From a virus: 43,685 bases of DNA. This document shows, one piece after another, positions 6,307-15,099 of this stretch. The translations under genes and the position numbers were made by a program. Location of the stretch: the IMG/VR virus record IMGVR_UViG_3300045988_135432, positions 1-43,685 of that record. One strand, 5' to 3'. The notes beneath the pieces were generated by a model, which had not been told where the DNA came from, did not search any database, and saw only the letters and a program-made list of their open reading frames with translations. Each line of letters starts with the position of its first letter. The first letter of the stretch is position 1.

Positions 6307-6764
6307 GCACCCCCCAGAATCTCGACGATCCGCCGCCCGGTGCATCGCTTGTCGCAGAACAGGAAGTCGACGCCGTAAGCGATGTGGACTTTGTAAATGC
6401 GCTCCATAAGTTCCTTCCCGCTTATCGCGTATGGAATTTTCCCCTGCATCGGATTGTGCCAGTCTTTCACGTCGCGGATCGACTTGCACCACCCGCCGTG
6501 CTCGCACAGCACGACGAGGTGGATTCCGAGTTCCTTCGCGAGTCGCACTTCACGCATGAACCGTCCGGAGTCGTTGGTGAGGTTGTTGGCCAGCTCGCTC
6601 AGATTGAATTTGCGGTCAACCGAAAGCTTAGGATTGTCAAGGCTCATATAGTCACCTACGATGAGTTTCGAGGAATAGTGCTTTATGCCTTCTCGATCGA
6701 AGTAGTCTAAAATCCTGCCGATAATATGTGCTTTTTCTCGGCTGTCGCAGATCACAGACATCAT
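6300..6764 (-). CDS. ERCC4-type (Mus81/Hef-like) nuclease
   Basis: Motifs CDSRE, GDY, VDRK...ELA and LVVLCE in ERCC4 order. SD AAGAGGTAA before ATGATG. Confidence 0.7.
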   Translation of the reverse strand: MMSVICDSREKAHIIGRILDYFDREGIKHYSSKLIVGDYMSLDNPKLSVDRKFNLSELANNLTNDSGRFMREVRLAKELGIHLVVLCEHGGWCKSIRDVKDWHNPMQGKIPYAISGKELMERIYKVHIAYGVDFLFCDKRCTGRRIVEILGGAK

Positions 6765-6768
6765 ACGC

Positions 6769-7302
6769 TTACCTCTTTTTACCACCGACAATGGAAGAGA
6801 TATGGGAAGCGCTGATACCTGACATTCGTGCAAGTTCCGACGTGGTCATTTCTCCGCCGTTGCGTTTATGGTGATTTCTAACCCACTCAACAAGTTCATC
6901 ACTGAACTTGCTCTGCGGATTCTTTATTCCGGCGGTGCAACCGTTCTTTGAACCATAGTTGTTGTTATATTTGTGATCGCACCATTCCAGATTACTGGCG
7001 CGGTTGTTCGTTTTATCCTCGTCCTTGTGGTTGACTTCATTTAGCCCGGCTACTGTAGGCAAAAATGCCTTTGCTACAAGGCGATGAACGTTTACGCTTT
7101 TTTGCCGACCGTCTTTGTACAGGGAAACATGAAGATAATTTTTCCCACCATCATAGCACGGTTTACAAACGCAAGAAGGATGATGGCGCCCCATAGAATC
7201 AATCCTGTCTATGCTGCGAACTCGCCCCTCGGAGCTCACCTCATATATATTTTCGTACCCCTCTACTGGTTTCCATATTTCGTTATTCATTGTCTCTGTC
7301 AT
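6769..7302 (-). CDS. HNH homing endonuclease (NUMOD4 + HNH_3 + C-terminal HTH)
   Basis: EIWKPVEGYENIYEVSSEGRVRS, VHRLVAKAF, NHKDEDKTNNRASNLEW. Confidence 0.85.
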   Translation of the reverse strand: MTETMNNEIWKPVEGYENIYEVSSEGRVRSIDRIDSMGRHHPSCVCKPCYDGGKNYLHVSLYKDGRQKSVNVHRLVAKAFLPTVAGLNEVNHKDEDKTNNRASNLEWCDHKYNNNYGSKNGCTAGIKNPQSKFSDELVEWVRNHHKRNGGEMTTSELARMSGISASHISSIVGGKKR

Positions 7303-7314
7303 ATTTCACCCACC

Positions 7315-7764
7315 TCAGAACGGCAGCACGTCGCCCTCAGGCAGCACCTCAAAGTTGGGAACGTCCTGAGACGCGCCAGGAGCGTCCGTGACGGTCGTTC
7401 TCGCCTGAGGGGTATAGTTGCCCGCCTGATAGTTTCCCGCGCCCTGAGCGCCGCCCTTCGCGCCGCAGAAGTGGCACTTGTCGACGTCGCAGATTATCAT
7501 GGAGCGTTTCTGTCCCTGATCGTCCGTCCACGAGTTGGTGATGAGCCGCCCCTCGACGATGACCTGATCGCCTTTGTGGAAGTATTTCGGCAAGAATTCC
7601 GCCGTCGTTCTCCATGCGCGGCATTTCAGGAAGCAGGTCGATTCGACCTCCTTGTACTTTTCGCTCCATGCGACGTCGAAGTTGCAGTAGCTGACGCCGC
7701 TCTGTGTCTGTTTCAGCTCCGGGTCGGCGGTGAATCTGCCCTGAAAAGTGACTTTGTTCAGCAT
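7315..7764 (-). CDS. ssb: Single-stranded DNA-binding protein
   Basis: OB-fold N-terminus, Gly/Gln-rich linker, acidic tip ending DVLPF. Confidence 0.9.
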   Translation of the reverse strand: MLNKVTFQGRFTADPELKQTQSGVSYCNFDVAWSEKYKEVESTCFLKCRAWRTTAEFLPKYFHKGDQVIVEGRLITNSWTDDQGQKRSMIICDVDKCHFCGAKGGAQGAGNYQAGNYTPQARTTVTDAPGASQDVPNFEVLPEGDVLPF

Positions 7765-8444
7765 TATTTCTTTTCCTTTCCGGCGGCGATTGCGGCGTCG
7801 AGAGCGGCGGTCATAGTCGCTGAGGCGCCGGTCTGTTTCTGCCTCGACGCTTCGATGTCCTCCGGCTCACCTTCGACTATCGCGCCGAGGAGCTCCGATG
7901 GGCAGTACATCCTCGCGAAGAACGCCGCCGCGCGGTAGAACAGCATCTGCTCCGGCATATTCTTCCACTTCGTATTACTCATCCAGCCTTCAGCCGCCGC
8001 CATTTTCATGGAGATTTCGGTTCCGTCGACGACTTCGCCGTCCGAAATCCGGATCGCGCGGATGAAGCAAGTACGAGTGTCGGTGCCCTTCGTACCGGAG
8101 TAAATCGGACGGGCGTCGCGGAAGCGTCCGCACGAGTTGATGATAGCCATGCACGCCTGACCGCTCCAACGGGGCTTGCCTTTCACGACGTCGACGTTCT
8201 GGAGGACGGCGAGCGGGGAGAGTCCGGCGCGTGCCGCCATTTCGATAGCGACGAAGCAGTCCTGGGGCTTGTTCTGGTATTTCTCCGGGATCATCTGTGA
8301 TTTCGACAGCATGATCGCGACGCGCTGAGTCTGCTCGAACGCGTCCTTGTCCACCCAGATGTTGGTGACGTTCATCGGCGCGGTGTTGATCGGCGCGACA
8401 GCCTGTTCGTTAGTCGCGGGAATGATTTCTTGTGCGTTGTCCAT
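7764..8444 (-). CDS. recT: RecT-family single-strand annealing recombinase
   Basis: RecT-like core (KSQMIPEKYQNKPQDCFVAIEMA...PLAVLQNVDVVKGKPRWS). SD AAAGGAG before the ATG at 8444. Confidence 0.85.
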   Translation of the reverse strand: MDNAQEIIPATNEQAVAPINTAPMNVTNIWVDKDAFEQTQRVAIMLSKSQMIPEKYQNKPQDCFVAIEMAARAGLSPLAVLQNVDVVKGKPRWSGQACMAIINSCGRFRDARPIYSGTKGTDTRTCFIRAIRISDGEVVDGTEISMKMAAAEGWMSNTKWKNMPEQMLFYRAAAFFARMYCPSELLGAIVEGEPEDIEASRQKQTGASATMTAALDAAIAAGKEKK

Positions 8445-10419: not shown

Positions 10420-10641
10420 GGGGTTCTCCTCTCATAATTCTTGCTTCATAATGGTAGCACGCCGCGCCGCACGTTGGGCATTTCATTGCAACGACAATGG
10501 TGTTGTCAGTACTGAATCTGGTTTGATAGTCCTCCTTTTCGCCCTCAAAGACGCACCCGCAACTGGTGCACTCGAACCGTTTCGTCGTATCGCGACGGAG
10601 ATATACAGCAGGACGAAGGGGGTTGATCTGAGAATTTTCAT
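10400..10641 (-). pseudogene. Zinc-ribbon ORF interrupted at a C5 run (frameshift, assembly error or recoding)
   Basis: The ATGA-coupled ATG at 10641 opens a frame with an implausible product. The -1 frame after the C5 run (10618-10622) encodes RFECTSCGCVFEGEKEDYQ...MKCPTCGAACYHY. Confidence 0.45.
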
Positions 10642-11006
10642 TCCTTTACCTCCTCGAGCCAGTACTTCTTCCGGCAGTCAGGGCATTCGCATTCGCTGTG
10701 ATCGAACTTCCCCTTCTCTGGGCAAGCAAACTCTTCGTCAAAGCTATTTGGGCAGAAATCTATCGTGCCGTTGCTGGCCATGCTCGCTCTCGGAAACATC
10801 TTCAAGAACTCGCTTTGCCGAGTCTTTAACGGATGCTCCTTGCTCCATTTCTCAACAATCACAACAGCTTCGGCGGGGCAGCGTTTGATATAATCGTTGC
10901 ACGATTCGTTGCCGTCCATGCGATTTGCTATTTCGCATCCCCTACAGCGATTGTTAAACGACTTGCACATTCTGTCGCGCGTCACGATAAATTCAACCGC
11001 GTCCAT
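10638..11006 (-). CDS. Cys-rich hypothetical protein (122 aa)
   Basis: CRGCE...C..YIKRCP...CECPDC motifs. Confidence 0.6.
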   Translation of the reverse strand: MDAVEFIVTRDRMCKSFNNRCRGCEIANRMDGNESCNDYIKRCPAEAVVIVEKWSKEHPLKTRQSEFLKMFPRASMASNGTIDFCPNSFDEEFACPEKGKFDHSECECPDCRKKYWLEEVKE

Positions 11007-11466
11007 TTTTCCTATCTCCTCTCAGGTCGCGCCCGCAGTGCGGGCAGAAATTGATTTGAAATGAATCCATCCTCGGACCGTTGCAATAGCTGTCACCGTA
11101 GGTCGGGCAATAGTAGCTTCTGACAAACAGAGTCTTTCCAGCCCACGGGAGATCACCGATGAACAGCTTCGTTCTGAATGTCTCCTGATAAGGTGTCAGC
11201 ATCTGACCGTTTTTCTCGTAAGGTACCGCGTGCTTCCCGTCGCAGAACTCGCAGGGTCTCGCGATCTCCTCGCGTCCATTTTCGTCCTCCTCTTTTTTTG
11301 CCCACTCATCCGGCTTCCATTGCCACGGCTCTTTGCGCCATGTGTAACAGGCATCACCGTTCGGATCATTCAGCGGACAGTCGTCGCAGTTTTTCTGCTT
11401 TCTGCACGTGTTTTTTATTGTTTCAAGTGCTTGTTTCAGTTCAGGTGTCATCTTCGTCATCCCCAA
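10993..11466 (-). CDS. Cys-rich hypothetical protein (about 155 aa; start approximate)
   Basis: KNCDDCPL...C and CEFCDG...FCPHCG motifs. Confidence 0.6.
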   Translation of the reverse strand: MGMTKMTPELKQALETIKNTCRKQKNCDDCPLNDPNGDACYTWRKEPWQWKPDEWAKKEEDENGREEIARPCEFCDGKHAVPYEKNGQMLTPYQETFRTKLFIGDLPWAGKTLFVRSYYCPTYGDSYCNGPRMDSFQINFCPHCGRDLRGDRKNGRG

Positions 11467-11623
11467 TCCACTCGTCTATACTCCATAACCAAATCCACGG
11501 TGCATGAACTTGTATATAGCACTTGCCTTCGTATTCTTTGCTCTTTGGACATATTGCACAATTCTTGTATTTGTTGCAAACGTCCCGCTTTATTTCGAGC
11601 GCTTTCTCTTCTTCAGGTGTCAT
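11441..11623 (-). CDS. Cys-rich small protein (60 aa)
   Basis: CNKYKNCAICP...C motif, similar to the N-terminus of the 10993..11466 product. Confidence 0.55.
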   Translation of the reverse strand: MTPEEEKALEIKRDVCNKYKNCAICPKSKEYEGKCYIQVHAPWIWLWSIDEWIGDDEDDT

Positions 11624-11922
11624 ATTTCGTCCTCCTCATCCATCTTCGCCCCGCAGTGTGGGCAGTATGGCGGCGTGTACTGCTTGTTCGACTTGTTGCA
11701 GTGTGAGCAGAACGCCTTTTCTTCGCCGCTGCCTTCGCAGCCGTTGACGTAGACACGTCTCATCTCCCATTTCGCATGGATGATCGGTGCGGCATCGGCA
11801 GCGGAAATGTCATCTTGAACGGCTTCAATCATCAATTCGATGTCTACTACTGGACTGCTGCTCTCCTCGCCTGCGCCTTTCAGCAGGTCGATCACTGCTT
11901 GTCTTTCGATGTATTCAGCCAT
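11620..11922 (-). CDS. Hypothetical protein with a C-terminal zinc ribbon (CSHCN...YCPHCGAKMD)
   Basis: Paralogous C-terminus to 8458..8868. Confidence 0.6.
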   Translation of the reverse strand: MAEYIERQAVIDLLKGAGEESSSPVVDIELMIEAVQDDISAADAAPIIHAKWEMRRVYVNGCEGSGEEKAFCSHCNKSNKQYTPPYCPHCGAKMDEEDEI

Positions 11923-12097
11923 TTTCGTCCTCCTTTGTTTCTATCTGTCTCCCCAGTCTGTTGATATCACCAAGAATTGTCTTAAGCCCATCTGAATCGC
12001 TGTGTAAGCACGTTTCGCAGATATAATTGCATCCGGCAGTGGATTTCCACGGGCAGTTCATAAACGCCATTGAGCGTTCTTCGAACGTGTTGTTCAT
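11915..12097 (-). CDS. Cys-rich small protein (60 aa)
   Basis: MNCPWKSTAGCNYICETC motif. Confidence 0.5.
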   Translation of the reverse strand: MNNTFEERSMAFMNCPWKSTAGCNYICETCLHSDSDGLKTILGDINRLGRQIETKEDENG

Positions 12098-13443
12098 TCT
12101 TCCTCCTCCGGAAATCTCAGCTTCGTCACGGCGATCGGGAATTCCTCAATCTCACTCGCCCATCTCGCCGAGCCCCTGCCGTGAAACGTCTCCCAACACA
12201 GCGGGAAGCCGCCGATCCCGTCGAACAGGCTGCCCATCGTCGCGCCGGCCGGAAGATATTCGCTCATCCGGCGGAGCATCCAGAGCCAGAAGGGGAGGGC
12301 GATTGAGTTCCCGAGTGCCTTATACCTCGGCGCGTCGGCGGATTTGTGTTTCTTGCCCTTCGTGTCGATCCAGTTGCCGATGTCCGTCCACCCGTCCGGG
12401 AAGCCTTGAAGCCGCTCGCATTCAAGCGGTGTCAGACGCCGGACCGCGCCATCCTGAACGCTCAGATCGAGCGAGGATAGCTTACATTGATTGCTACATT
12501 GCGTACTCGCCACATCGGATTCAGCCATGCCGCCGAACCCCTGATTCGAGAAGGTGAGTGGTATCTGATTCCCGCCCGTTCCCATCCTGCCTTGCAAGGT
12601 CGGCGACACCTCACCGCAGTCGCGGATCACGTCACTTGCGTGCGCCATGTCATAGCACACAGCCGGGCGGTCAATCGTGTTGAGCGTATAACTCACGTTT
12701 TCGCGCCATCCGCGACCGTTGCATCCCACTGTGTCGGCGCGGTCGATCACATTGCCTTGCAGACAAATCACTGCCTGATTATTTGCGCCGCTGTTTCTTC
12801 GTGCTGAGAGCGTAGGGAACACTCCCGCACTTTGATAAATCCGTCTGCTCTGGCAATCCCACGGGGTCAGGCATCCAGCGCCGTCTTTTTTAACACCGCC
12901 TTCAACGCTTCCGGCAGCTCCTTCCCGCGCCTCTCCGCGCGTCTCAGAATCCCCAGACACGCCGTCGCGCTCAAAGAGTATTTCGGGTGCGGTTTCTCCT
13001 CCAAAATCTGCGACAAGTGCGATTCGACGGCGACGTTGGGGGACTCCCCAGAATTGCGCGTCGTGCACTCGCCAGGCGACTGAATACCCATCGCCCACGA
13101 CGCATCCGGCGTGTGCCCATCTGCCTTTCGGAGGTTGAGGGACAGTAGCTGACTCGTCGACGACTTTGACGATTTCTTCGAGGACGATCCGGAAGTCTTC
13201 GCCTCGGTTGCTGCTGAATGCTCCGGGGACGTTTTCCCAGACCATGTATCGCGGTTTTCCATATTTTCTGCGCATCTCCTTTACAATCCTGATTTGCTCC
13301 ATAAACAGTCCGGAGCGTGCGCCGGATAACCCGGCGCGTTTTCCTGCCACACTCAAGTCCTGGCAGGGCGAGCCGCCGATAATGCAGTTGACGGGTTCGA
13401 TCTCATCCCCGCGGATAAGTGTGATGTCTCCTAAGTGCTTCAC
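12094..13443 (-). CDS. DNA (cytosine-5) methyltransferase, circularly permuted (motif order III-IV-VI-VIII-TRD-IX-X-I-II)
   Basis: GGSPCQDLSVAG (IV) at residues 23-34, ENVPG (VI), QRRRR (VIII), RRLTPLECERLQGFPDGW (IX), GNSIALPF (X). LFDGIGGF (I) and ASEIEEFPIAVTKLRFPE (II) form the C-terminus. GTG start after GGGAGGT. Confidence 0.85.
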   Translation of the reverse strand: MKHLGDITLIRGDEIEPVNCIIGGSPCQDLSVAGKRAGLSGARSGLFMEQIRIVKEMRRKYGKPRYMVWENVPGAFSSNRGEDFRIVLEEIVKVVDESATVPQPPKGRWAHAGCVVGDGYSVAWRVHDAQFWGVPQRRRRIALVADFGGETAPEILFERDGVSGDSETRGEAREGAAGSVEGGVKKDGAGCLTPWDCQSRRIYQSAGVFPTLSARRNSGANNQAVICLQGNVIDRADTVGCNGRGWRENVSYTLNTIDRPAVCYDMAHASDVIRDCGEVSPTLQGRMGTGGNQIPLTFSNQGFGGMAESDVASTQCSNQCKLSSLDLSVQDGAVRRLTPLECERLQGFPDGWTDIGNWIDTKGKKHKSADAPRYKALGNSIALPFWLWMLRRMSEYLPAGATMGSLFDGIGGFPLCWETFHGRGSARWASEIEEFPIAVTKLRFPEEEE

Positions 13444-13446
13444 GTC

Positions 13447-14250
13447 TTACCTCCCGACGATCTCAGCCGCGCAGGAAAACCGCCAGCTGAATCCAGCAGC
13501 CGAGGCTCTGCGTCCTGCAAGGGCGTTGCTTATGTTCTGCTGGCACGCCCCCGTTGCTTTTGCAGCGTCCCGTATGGAGCTATAAATCGCAACTATTTCG
13601 TCACCTTGCATTGCAACCACGGGTTTCATCCGCTTTTCGTTGCTCCTTTTTCGCCATTCCATTTCCGACACTGGCGCTGAGAGGCGTTCAGCAGTCTCTG
13701 CATATAGCTGCGGAGAATTTTCAGCGAATGATAAATAGACAAATCGCTGCCCGGAAACAGATAGCTCACCATTCGCTTTGCACGACCGCCCGATGTTTGC
13801 CGCACAACTGTGCAAATCTCTTGCCGCATCGGCTATATCTCTGTATTCCTTGCCGGTAGTTAACGAGATGACAGGAGATAGCGCCTTGTGATGCCCACTA
13901 TTCATAGAGTGTATTGTGTTTTCACCATTTGTGCACCATTCAAGGTTTTCAACGCGGTTGTCAGATCGGTCGAAATTTTTGTGATTGACTTGAGGCTTGC
14001 CCTGCGGATTGGGGATGAAGGCGTTTGCCACAAGACGATGCACGCTGTATGTTCTCCCCGCGAAAGTCACTTGCATATACCCCGTTTGCACGTTTCGGTT
14101 GAGCTTTCTCGTTCTCCCTCTTACCGGCTTCTGGTATGTGCGAGCATGATCATGGACGGTTATGACACGGTCGATGCTCCGAACGTTTCCTAAGCTCGAA
14201 ACCTCCAGCTGTCCGTCAACTTCTTCAACGGGCTTCCATATTTCTTGCAC
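13447..14250 (-). CDS. HNH homing endonuclease (NUMOD4 + HNH_3 + two NUMOD1/IENR-like HTH repeats)
   Basis: EIWKPVEEVDGQLEVSSLGNVRS, VHRLVANAF, NHKNFDRSDNRVENLEW. Its last codons carry the SD of the methyltransferase. Confidence 0.85.
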   Translation of the reverse strand: MQEIWKPVEEVDGQLEVSSLGNVRSIDRVITVHDHARTYQKPVRGRTRKLNRNVQTGYMQVTFAGRTYSVHRLVANAFIPNPQGKPQVNHKNFDRSDNRVENLEWCTNGENTIHSMNSGHHKALSPVISLTTGKEYRDIADAARDLHSCAANIGRSCKANGELSVSGQRFVYLSFAENSPQLYAETAERLSAPVSEMEWRKRSNEKRMKPVVAMQGDEIVAIYSSIRDAAKATGACQQNISNALAGRRASAAGFSWRFSCAAEIVGR

Positions 14251-14746
14251 TTATTTCGCCTCCCAGGCTCAAATAACCTACTCCATCTATAAAGCTATCT
14301 GCCTTATAGTTCCCGCTCCGAATCCGCGCGATTTTGAGGAGCGCCATCATTATGGCGATGTCCTCGGAAGAGATCGGGTGCCCGATGTAGGTCGTCCAGA
14401 ACTCGGCGATAACCGCGAAATTATCTTCCGGCTTCCCGTACTGCTTTTCTCTGTCCCCGGTCACGATTTTCTTCGCGGCGTCGAGTATTTCGGCGCGGGT
14501 AGTTGGTGTATCGGTTGGTGTGTCAGCCTCAGTTGGTGTATCAGTTGGTGTACTGACCTTTTTGTTGACGTCAACAATATGCTCGTCAAGTCCAAAATCC
14601 CTGTTCCATTCCGCCGGAACCCCGCGAAGTTTGCAGAGCAGGTCGCTGCGACAGAACAGGCAGCCCTTGCAGCTGTCGAGACGTTCCTCACAGCTCCTGC
14701 TGAGCATCCTCGCGGCTTCCGTCAGTTTTTCGTTTTCGCTTTTCAT
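14225..14746 (-). CDS. DUF6378-like protein with an N-terminal Cys cluster and a PTDT linker
   Basis: TGDREKQYGKPEDNFAVIAEFW...MMALLKIARI...KADSFIDGVGY pattern. SD GAGGAGAA. Confidence 0.6.
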   Translation of the reverse strand: MKSENEKLTEAARMLSRSCEERLDSCKGCLFCRSDLLCKLRGVPAEWNRDFGLDEHIVDVNKKVSTPTDTPTEADTPTDTPTTRAEILDAAKKIVTGDREKQYGKPEDNFAVIAEFWTTYIGHPISSEDIAIMMALLKIARIRSGNYKADSFIDGVGYLSLGGEISARNMEAR

Positions 14747-14757
14747 AATCGTTCTCC

Positions 14758-15099
14758 TCACTTAGATTTAATAACTATATGTGTTCTCCCGCGCCCGAGG
14801 AGTTCGTCCTGCATCATCTGTGCGACTTTGTCTTCCTCGGCGGTTTCGGGGCGGTAGTTCTTTCCGGCTCTTTCGGCGTAGTCGGATGTGATATCCTCGA
14901 TGCCTTGGAGTATGTACATCAGGCGCTTGTCGCCGAATCCGGCAATATCGTTCAGAGCCAGACACACGGCGAGCAGAATCCGGTTCGCGTAGATTTTCTG
15001 CCGTTCCGCAAACTCGGCGTCGACCATAGCCCGGACGGCTTCCTGCGTCCCCGCCGGTAGGTTCTGCCGCGCTGTGGCGGCGGACATTCGGGCTTTCAT
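14758..15099 (-). CDS. Hypothetical protein (113 aa)
   Basis: ORF within the operon. Confidence 0.55.
   Translation of the reverse strand: MKARMSAATARQNLPAGTQEAVRAMVDAEFAERQKIYANRILLAVCLALNDIAGFGDKRLMYILQGIEDITSDYAERAGKNYRPETAEEDKVAQMMQDELLGRGRTHIVIKSK

Follow-up and report, generated by a model that had tools for sequence, protein, structure and literature searches.

A naturally permuted family of gut-phage cytosine-5 DNA methyltransferases with new termini between motifs II and III

The product of an open reading frame (ORF) in the replication/recombination module of a gut-phage genome is very probably a functional orphan DNA (cytosine-5) methyltransferase of the phage whose chain is naturally circularly permuted, so that motifs I and II follow motif X at its end. 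The window, i.e., the whole stretch of 43,685 nucleotides analyzed here (IMG/VR record IMGVR_UViG_3300045988_135432), carries a tailed-phage genome with terminase, portal, capsid and tape measure genes. C5-methyltransferases (C5-MTases) are a textbook case of rigidly conserved motif order, and to our knowledge the natural exceptions described to date all keep the two structural domains intact. The MTase gene and the motifs of its product are located as follows.

13450..13455, minus strand: Shine-Dalgarno sequence GGGAGG, 6 nt 5' of the GTG, read from the sequence
12094..13443, minus strand: complete, permuted C5 DNA methyltransferase ORF of 449 aa with GTG start and TGA stop (ORF listing, sequence, PF00145, TIGR00675)
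13420..13437, minus strand: motif III, HLGDIT, aa 3-8, now N-terminal; aligns to M.HhaI residues 58-63
13351..13377, minus strand: motif IV, GGSPCQDLS, aa 23-31, with catalytic Cys27; aligns to M.HhaI GFPCQAFS and is invariant in a 30-sequence alignment
13222..13236, minus strand: motif VI, ENVPG, aa 70-74 (M.HhaI alignment and 30-sequence family alignment)
13024..13038, minus strand: motif VIII, QRRRR, aa 136-140; aligns to M.HhaI QKRER and is invariant in the family alignment
12388..12441, minus strand: motif IX, RRLTPLECERLQGFPDGW, aa 335-352; aligns to M.HhaI residues 268-289
12292..12312, minus strand: motif X, GNSIALP, aa 378-384 (family alignment and BLASTP against the canonical relative P0243)
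12238..12291, minus strand: X-to-I linker, FWLWMLRRMSEYLPAGAT, aa 385-402, joining old C-terminus to old N-terminus (P0243 alignment)
12205..12237, minus strand: motif I, MGSLFDGIGGF, aa 403-413, the AdoMet loop; aligns to M.HhaI residues 14-24, with F407, D408 and G409 invariant
12139..12162, minus strand: motif II, WASEIEEF, aa 428-435 (M.HhaI, family alignment, P0243)
12097..12120, minus strand: new C-terminus, LRFPEEEE, aa 442-449, ending one residue before the motif III start of canonical relatives

The GTG is the earliest possible start downstream of an in-frame TAA. The ORF matches PF00145 (E=2.2e-36, 126.3 bits against a cut-off of 22) and TIGR00675 (126.3 against a cut-off of 100.65), and the catalytic motifs of this superfamily, IV (PC), VI (ENV) and VIII (QxRxR), are all found in it, together with the AdoMet-binding motifs FDGIGG (I, aa 407-412), SEIE (II, aa 430-433), GDIT (III, aa 5-8) and GNS (X, aa 378-380). 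The linear order is III-IV-VI-VIII-TRD-IX-X-I-II and the canonical order from I to X is absent. A preliminary description of this DNA, made from the sequence alone, had assigned the ORF a GTG start preceded by a Shine-Dalgarno site and had listed its motifs from GDIT (aa 5-8) to GSLFDGIGGF (aa 404-413) and ASEIEEF (aa 429-435); start and site are as described, and every listed motif was found in the order given.

Alignment to M.HhaI places query residues 4-88 on residues 58-137 and query residues 403-447 on residues 14-56, and the break therefore lies exactly between HhaI residues 56 and 58. BLASTP against P0243 returns three segments, q1-296 on 45-334 (E=1e-91), q321-402 on 538-610 (E=4e-19) and q403-445 on 3-43 (E=2e-13), with the motif I-II segment 65% identical to the P0243 N-terminus. 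The ORF has the two defining properties of a Type B permutation, new termini between II and III and joined native termini: query 445 corresponds to P0243 43, query 1 to 45 and query 402/403 to 610/3. Relative to P0243 it is a clean circular permutation. The final 50 aa alone match PF00145 positions 3-43 (E=0.01), and as the motif I-II segment by itself scores weakly against M.HhaI (about 0-1 bit), its assignment relies on the canonical relatives and the Pfam positions. The earlier motif assignment and the proposal that the chain is broken between II and III hold in these non-collinear alignments, with the II|III breakpoint at M.HhaI 56/58 and P0243 43/45.

A cut at this point has been made in the laboratory. 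The engineered Type B variants cp62M.MpeI and cp58M.SssI, with termini between II and III, were the most active of 21 designs; cp62M.MpeI was about as active as the wild-type enzyme, and the fragments [1-61]+[62-395] of M.MpeI complement each other (PMC5944983, 2018). These permutants share with the phage MTase the new N-terminus between II and III, the fused native termini and the order III...X-I-II, but they are laboratory constructs of CG-specific Mollicutes enzymes, whereas the phage gene is natural, has an unrelated TRD and is the prevailing form of its family. The authors reported no natural Type B example among 20,677 REBASE entries, described natural permuted C5-MTases with variable-region breakpoints only, and puzzled over nature's avoidance of the II/III cut, for which they suggested an in-vivo AdoMet-affinity penalty (PMC5944983). 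Only two m5C classes are distinguished in a 2025 bioRxiv topology classification, and a search of the searchable literature for a natural Type B topology found only the engineered variants cp62M.MpeI and cp58M.SssI.

How does the phage MTase relate to the natural permutations? M.BssHII, M.Alw26I, M2.Eco31I, M.Esp3I and M2.BsaI (the zeta class, "Type H" or "class F") likewise carry X and then I in a single chain, and duplication and truncation are their presumed origin, as proposed here. Their breakpoint, however, lies in the variable region, with IX-X before I-VIII, so that the two structural domains stay intact; in the phage MTase III-VIII precede the variable region and the break falls within that half of the large domain which binds AdoMet. 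The variable-region breakpoint by which PMC5944983 and the 2025 bioRxiv study define the zeta/Type H/class F enzymes is thus absent. Plant DRM1 and DRM2 are also natural enzymes with a rearranged C5-MTase motif order, but they are eukaryotic multi-domain proteins in which VI-X come before I-V and the break falls between V and VI. In the phage MTase IV (aa 23-31) precedes VI (aa 70-74) and I-II follow X, and the alignment of DRM2 to the query is local only, in the motif IV region. The M.HhaI and P0243 alignments thereby bear out the initial view of a topology distinct from both the M.BssHII and the DRM types.

A very large gut-phage family has the permuted topology as its dominant form, and the gene is no singular case. 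It was found in all 120 of the nearest 90%-identity protein clusters (62-100% identical, 372-584 aa), each of which begins M-K-H-L-G-D-I-T and has motif I after motif X, and in 119 of the 150 best 50%-identity representatives. These 119 Type B representatives have diverged to about 45-65% identity, yet all have intact catalytic motifs, and their GNS-to-motif I spacing is 26-35 aa. Residues C27, E70, Q136/R137/R139, F407/D408/G409 and E431 are invariant in the 30-sequence alignment. Relatives are encoded at 354 IMG/VR viral loci. The 3.5-kb region had no Megablast match among GenBank phages, and matches were obtained at the protein level only. A regex check of motif order at 80 loci identified 24 clear single-ORF permuted genes, every one of them from a MAG, and the named isolates checked in a search for permuted genes in cultured bacteria look canonical, with motif I upstream of IV. 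The Roseburia and Waltera loci were left unclassified by the motif-order script, which did not detect its motif IX pattern there. In the annotation of cultured Faecalibacterium phages, the gene is divided into two distinct "DNA methyltransferase" CDS.

Could the arrangement be a product of assembly or annotation, with a contig joined wrongly or a repeat collapsed? The window is a contig assembled from a metagenome, but the same gene structure recurs on hundreds of independent contigs (ENA, Logan, JGI, NCBI), among them viral genomes of IMG/VR, prophages in bacterial MAGs and Faecalibacterium phages in culture; this recurrence refutes an artefact, to which we assign a negligible probability. 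A decayed remnant, raised as an alternative in the preliminary description, would consist of a 5'-truncated and then a 3'-truncated partial MTase gene fused in frame, with the enzyme lost. The architecture is as expected of such a pair of fragments, a Met stands at the junction (aa 403) and some relatives are frameshifted. Conservation of that architecture in 120/120 clusters and in 119/150 representatives as distant as about 45-65% identity, with invariant catalytic motifs and a constrained linker length, is nevertheless incompatible with neutral decay; it rules against this reading, which is largely refuted and highly improbable. A natural circular permutation thus accounts for the ORF far better, and the II/III cut, best in engineering in 2018 and reported absent from nature, is used naturally and on a large scale by gut phages. 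Such genes will be handled wrongly by annotation that relies on motif order and by REBASE-style classifiers.

The frameshift-broken relatives include FP_Toutatis, at a G9 run, and L004, at a C-run. As several relatives are frameshifted, the gene is dispensable or variable in some lineages. Programmed frameshifting was considered for these genes and rejected: L004, set against the intact L016, has simply lost 1 nt from a C5 run, the FP_Toutatis break falls at its G9 run, and no slippery site shared by the two was seen. Both look like indels, sequencing errors or phase variation.

The alignments suggest a chain that would begin at β-strand 3 (motif III), continue with catalytic motifs IV-VIII, a target-recognition region of several modules and IX-X, and then pass by a linker of ~18 residues to the AdoMet-binding β1-loop (motif I) and motif II. 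It would end in the surface loop that ordinary enzymes have before motif III. As the N- and C-termini of ordinary C5-MTases adjoin, the permuted chain should give the same Rossmann-like fold and active site. Closure of the fold would be supported by family-wide conservation and by the engineered precedent; an AlphaFold2 model from a shallow 30-sequence alignment (homologues 74-94% identical) had a mean pLDDT of 34, too low to be of use. The enzyme is expected to use its Cys in the usual way to transfer the methyl group of AdoMet to C5 of a flipped-out cytosine, and its likely role is to protect the phage genome from host restriction, probably at several target sequences. We infer fold closure, activity, multispecificity and biological role from the sequence comparisons. 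Phage C5-MTase homologues that add a non-methyl group do exist, e.g., the carboxymethyltransferase CmoX (PMC12783734), and an enzyme of this kind, or one with a non-DNA substrate, is conceivable here. It is very unlikely, given that the closest relatives, 51-58% identical, are Dcm-type enzymes of the ordinary kind in which motifs I, IV, VI and VIII are the same, that motif IX and TRD-like modules are typical of DNA enzymes, and that a search for hypermodification partner genes beside the MTase gene saw none.

Those canonical relatives are Dcm-type MTases of Clostridia prophages and mobile elements (e.g., P0243, P0165, and genes of Roseburia inulinivorans DSM 16841 and Oscillibacter valericigenes), 51-58% identical over III-X and 65% over I-II. 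They share with the phage MTase a modular variable region and an embedded +1-frame ORF (discussed below), but their motifs run from I to X and the C-terminal helix after GNS reads AIPCV..V..GI instead of ALPFW.WM..RM. In them the N-terminus is M(x)GSLFDGIGG and the junction reads ...RFP[DEN]-M-KHLGDIT. Both junctions of the permuted gene are homologous to these sequences: its start Met/Val is the internal Met of canonical RFPxM|KHLGDIT, and a Met is also present at the X-to-I fusion point, where M403 appears to be the retained ancestral start codon. The same clade that holds these canonical enzymes contains a few relatives with a breakpoint in the variable region (P0131, P0220, P0240, P0269). 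P0131-type relatives are stand-alone phage genes with the same X-to-I linker as in Type B. The coexistence of canonical and variable-region-permuted relatives in one clade fits a model of duplication, fusion and truncation. In the likely course of events a canonical gene would have been duplicated in tandem and fused in frame, and both outer ends then lost; the internal Met before KHLGDIT would have become the new start, and the old start Met would persist at the fusion point. With canonical, Type B and variable-region-permuted forms linked by homologous fusion linkers, the clade is a rare natural record of such a process. Pairing natural Type B enzymes with close canonical relatives also makes the AdoMet-affinity hypothesis directly testable.

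Upstream of the MTase gene lies an endonuclease gene.

13447..14250, minus strand: free-standing HNH homing-endonuclease gene (NUMOD4/HNH_3/NUMOD1), identified by domain matches; absent in the relatives L001 and L002

Beyond it in the upstream direction comes a DUF6378 gene. Domain matches thus agree with the initial account, in which the upstream neighbors were an HNH gene and then an unrelated gene. In a relative that is 86% identical, the same permuted gene abuts DUF6378 directly, without HNH. The HNH ORF terminates within the final ~9 codons of what was the DUF6378 gene, the junction GGGAGGTAGGACGTG is also present in L001, which is without the HNH gene, and the in-frame TAA-GAC-GTG goes back to the DUF6378/MTase junction. 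The HNH gene entered the DUF6378 gene recently, at its 3' end, and has nothing to do with the permutation. That the MTase gene had not simply been split by an insertion, as proposed at the outset, is confirmed by the HNH-free relative and by the position of the insertion in DUF6378. For the same reasons HNH was rejected as the creator or marker of the breakpoint, permuted relatives without HNH being known.

Between motifs VIII and IX the MTase is modular.

12442..12966, minus strand: variable region, aa 160-334, with several TRD-like modules, each with a ...TL...NQ... core

The TRD-like modules include FPTLSARRNSGANNQ, SYTLNTIDRP and SPTLQGRMGTGGNQ, and could represent separate target-recognition domains. 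Whole blocks of the region differ among relatives of 372-584 aa, with modules gained and lost. M.SPRI, M.Phi3TI and M.Rho11sI of Bacillus phages are orphan multispecific C5-MTases with several tandem TRDs and a canonical motif order. Compared by description only, they may resemble the phage MTase in the modular variable region, here with exchangeable ...TL...NQ... modules, and differ from it in that their motif order is canonical and not permuted.

The MTase gene also contains a second, overlapping reading frame.

12867..13262, minus strand: +1-frame ORF of 131 aa with ATG start, overlapping MTase aa 61-192 (motifs VI-VIII and the following linker)

This ORF is a candidate overlapping gene, separate from the permutation itself. 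It is open in all 65 distinct homologous genes, with a median probability of 0.03 per gene under synonymous shuffling, and has a conserved ATG and an SD-like site. Past motif VIII the +1 frame is conserved at 59.6% vs. 45.0% for the MTase frame and is the higher of the two in 84% of pairs. The ORF bears signs of purifying selection. A chance open frame in GC-rich DNA was rejected as an explanation of the peptide, with synonymous shuffling, comparison with the +2 frame and frame-specific conservation all unsupportive of it. Searches with the +1 product gave no match in Pfam and NCBIfam, a weak match to PHROG 16143 only in PHROG, and nothing below E=1 in Foldseek against PDB.

An alternative reading draws on this second frame and supposes that only an assembly of several chains is active, either with motif I-II also made separately from Met403 or with the +1 product as a required subunit. 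M.EcoHK31I is a precedent, an α/β heterodimer whose β subunit is encoded in another frame inside the α gene (PMC2836561), and the openness, conservation and start signals of the +1 ORF, the complementation of the M.MpeI fragments, and P0215, in which the +1 module is fused in frame within the methyltransferase directly after motif VIII, would all suit such an assembly. The second ORF in an alternative frame of a C5-MTase gene is common to both systems, but M.EcoHK31I β supplies motif IX, whereas the main chain here has its own IX and holds every canonical motif. The +1 product was rejected as a disguised motif IX or other MTase motif carrier (hhalign probability 0.1%) and is without detectable similarity to solved folds, and engineered single-chain Type B permutants are active. 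We consider an obligate multi-chain enzyme unlikely, and the single permuted chain remains the preferred reading. The fusion in P0215 and the M.EcoHK31I precedent suggest that the +1 product may be a partner or regulator of the MTase. A tentative and less probable proposal therefore joins two novelties, a permuted MTase in a clade with canonical and variable-region-permuted forms, i.e., a natural permutation-by-duplication series, and a conserved gene-within-a-gene (~130-185 aa, +1 frame over motifs VI-VIII), common to MTase genes, canonical as well as permuted, in Clostridia phages and prophages, that might act in this capacity. If real, the +1 ORF would encode a widespread, overlooked protein in the methyltransferase genes of mobile elements.

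By its profile matches, the product of 12094..13443 is an unambiguous C5 DNA methyltransferase (C5-MTase), with hits to PF00145 (E=2.2e-36, 126 bits) and TIGR00675 (126 bits, cut-off 100.65). No start codon lies between an in-frame TAA and its GTG, which has GGGAGG 6 nt upstream. The motif order claimed in the preliminary description (III, IV, VI, VIII, variable region, IX, X, I, II) can be read in the sequence and is borne out:

12094..13443, minus strand: C5 DNA methyltransferase ORF, 449 codons, GTG start
aa 5-8: motif III, GDIT
aa 23-28: motif IV, GGSPCQ
aa 70-72: motif VI, ENV
aa 136-140: motif VIII, QRRRR
between motifs VIII and IX: variable region, ~175 aa
aa 335-352: motif IX, RRLTPLECERLQGFPDGW
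aa 378-380: motif X, GNS
aa 407-412: motif I, FDGIGG
aa 430-433: motif II, SEIE

Alignment to M.HhaI, the check proposed for this order, places residues 4-88 of this protein (the query) on HhaI 58-137, 331-352 on 268-289 and 403-447 on 14-56. In HhaI numbering the chain therefore starts at 58 and stops at 56, a non-canonical order with the break between these residues. The motif I-II segment alone matches HhaI weakly (~0-1 bit), so the decisive evidence for its assignment comes from sequence comparison with closer canonical relatives. BLASTP against one of these, P0243 (617 aa), returns three segments: query 1-296 on 45-334 (53% identity, E=1e-91), 321-402 on 538-610 (E=4e-19) and 403-445 on 3-43 (65% identity, E=2e-13). 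The C-terminal 50 residues of the query, taken alone, match PF00145 positions 3-43. On these alignments, 12094..13443 encodes a true circular permutation of a C5-MTase.

A one-off or wrecked gene is ruled out by the topology, spacing and invariant motifs in the family. Every one of the 120 top-scoring clusters in the database (62-100% identity, lengths of 372-584 aa) starts with MKHLGDIT and has motif I behind motif X, and an exhaustive HMMER search finds the same topology in 119 of the 150 best-scoring representatives at 50% clustering. Spacing between GNS and motif I stays within 26-35 residues, and the family alignment shows no substitution of the catalytic Cys, ENV, QRRRR, FDG or the Glu of motif II. 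The first reading of both the motif order and the II/III permutation stands, and the gene encodes a natural, conserved C5-MTase that is very probably active.

Relatives are encoded by 354 viral loci in IMG/VR. Among 80 loci from bacterial genomes, a regex check of motif order found 24 clear single-ORF permuted genes, every one of which belongs to a MAG, chiefly of Oscillospiraceae, Clostridia or Eubacteriales. The order looks canonical, motif I preceding motif IV, in those named isolates from culture that were checked (Roseburia inulinivorans, Oscillibacter valericigenes, Anaerotaenia torta, Desulfosporosinus metallidurans and others); at the Roseburia and Waltera loci the script found no motif IX pattern and left them unclassified. 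The Faecalibacterium phages FP_Toutatis and Lelie give full-length matches to the query. In FP_Toutatis (NC_047915.1, record 6463-7874; locus L090) a run of nine G interrupts the permuted gene, whose annotation gives two separate “DNA methyltransferase” CDS, and at a second relative's locus (L004, ~4215) a C5 run is one C short at the position corresponding to RPRY/MVWENV. Phase variation could explain these breaks, as could pseudogene formation or sequencing errors in homopolymers.

How does this topology compare with known permuted C5-MTases? A 2018 study built 21 permutants of M.MpeI and M.SssI, and by far the most active were cp62M.MpeI and cp58M.SssI, the “Class/Type B” designs whose new termini fall between motifs II and III, with cp62M.MpeI equalling the wild type (PMC5944983). 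The query-type gene has these same new termini but is natural. The 27 natural permuted C5-MTases found by that study among 20,677 REBASE entries all break in the variable region (PMC5944983), in contrast to the II/III break of the query. The m5C classes in a 2025 structural classification of prokaryotic MTases are only canonical C and zeta-like F, and full-text searches of open-access papers and bioRxiv returned no description of a natural II/III permutant. That the breakpoint is separate from natural types agrees with this literature, within which the query topology stands as one known so far from protein engineering only. The gene should interest specialists in methyltransferases and protein evolution.

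The junctions suggest how the permutation could have arisen. Canonical relatives begin M(x)GSLFDGIGG and read ...RFP[D/E/N]-M-KHLGDIT across the II/III junction. Permuted proteins begin at exactly this internal Met, end in ...RFPE plus 2-5 residues, and keep a Met at the X-to-I fusion point (...LPAGAT-M-GSLFDGIGG). Such features are what would be predicted by the model of duplication, in-frame fusion and two-sided truncation (cited in PMC5944983), in which a canonical gene would have been duplicated, the copies fused in frame and both outer sides truncated. Four relatives (P0131, P0220, P0240 and P0269) are broken in the variable region, which gives them the order TRD-IX-X-I-II-III-IV-VI-VIII, and their X-to-I linker is clearly homologous to that of query-type proteins; three topologies therefore occur within one clade. 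P0131 (L086 1637-3259) is a stand-alone gene within a phage gene row, in independent samples.

The window is a tailed-phage genome whose minus strand encodes large terminase, portal, major head and tape measure proteins, primase/helicase, RecT and a protein resembling exonuclease VIII, and the MTase gene lies in the early replication/recombination block. Its upstream neighbour is:

13447..14250, minus strand: HNH homing-endonuclease gene (NUMOD4/HNH_3/NUMOD1)

In the alignment, this ORF interrupts the DUF6378 gene inside its 3' end, with junctions near 14231..14250 and 13447..13475. It ends through the original last ~9 codons and stop of that gene (CAAEIVGR-stop vs CAAEIAGR-stop in L001), leaving a truncated DUF6378 ORF (14225..14761) with a newly acquired C-terminus. 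L001 has an MTase of 86% identity, and there DUF6378 and the MTase gene adjoin directly; in L002 the neighbour is different again. The HNH gene is thereby ruled out as the cause of the breakpoint, in keeping with the earlier view that the MTase gene was not split by its insertion. Downstream (10638..12097, minus strand) lies a string of small ORFs of 60-157 aa, several Cys-rich with CxxC pairs; 11620..11922, the sole one scanned, gave zinc-ribbon matches below threshold.

The enzyme is probably an orphan phage MTase that would protect phage DNA from host restriction. In its family, the variable region consists of blocks around a ...TL...NQ... core that relatives have gained or lack as whole units. 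Multispecific Bacillus phage MTases carry tandem TRDs, which these blocks may resemble. Other variants among the relatives are inteins directly before the catalytic Cys of motif IV (GGSP/C...VVHN/CQDLS) in P0215 (Hint and LAGLIDADG matches), P0249 (L089 2274-5417; a similar insertion, judged by eye) and P0269 (a mini-intein). In P0068 (aa ~350-500) an HNH_3 and helix-turn-helix module lies in frame within motif IX (GFPE[...]HGWTDIG); an in-frame homing endonuclease is one possible reading, an unrecognised intron/intein-like element another.

The MTase gene also contains a candidate overlapping gene, proposed from comparative evidence:

12867..13262, minus strand: +1-frame ORF, 131 codons, overlapping motifs VI-VIII and the following linker

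The +1 frame is open in 65 of 65 distinct homologous genes from IMG/VR (median 153 codons), where synonymous shuffling predicts 3.2 stops and a median chance of openness of 3% per gene; elsewhere in these genes it carries 4.8% stops per codon. Downstream of motif VIII, mean pairwise identity is 59.6% in the +1 frame vs 45.0% in the MTase frame, and is higher in the former in 84% of 700 pairs. The ATG lies exactly 19 codons before ENV in 42 of the 65 genes, and an SD-like (A/G)GGAG precedes it in 54. The ORF matches 599 database proteins, at least one being the ORF itself, annotated where an intact MTase gene should have been called. In P0215 the module is fused in frame: a segment there matches the last 59 residues of the ORF product (58% identity, E=5e-20) and follows motif VIII, in a protein whose motif VI-VIII region has no such overlapping frame. 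Frameshifted genes pass from the MTase into the +1 frame in P0240, P0289, P0296, P0373 and FP_Toutatis, whose first CDS enters the +1-frame module. Canonical MTase genes from cultured Clostridia contain the ORF too, as does the variable-region-permuted gene, so it is either older than the permutation or independent of it. Pfam and NCBIfam scans of its product gave no match, PHROG 16143 only a weak one, and neither a PDB fold match nor profile similarity to the MTase was found. In the AlphaFold2 prediction the N-terminal half is basic and disordered, while a small helical domain at the C-terminus is modelled with confidence (aa 82-130, pLDDT 82-91). We know of no precedent other than M.EcoHK31I. 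There, a different frame of the alpha gene encodes the beta chain (PMC2836561). The +2 frame is likewise open for 143 codons (12975..13404, minus strand; MTase aa 13-156) in the window and its two closest IMG/VR relatives (L006, L075), probably a composition effect since the opening shrinks to 11-90 codons in relatives further away.
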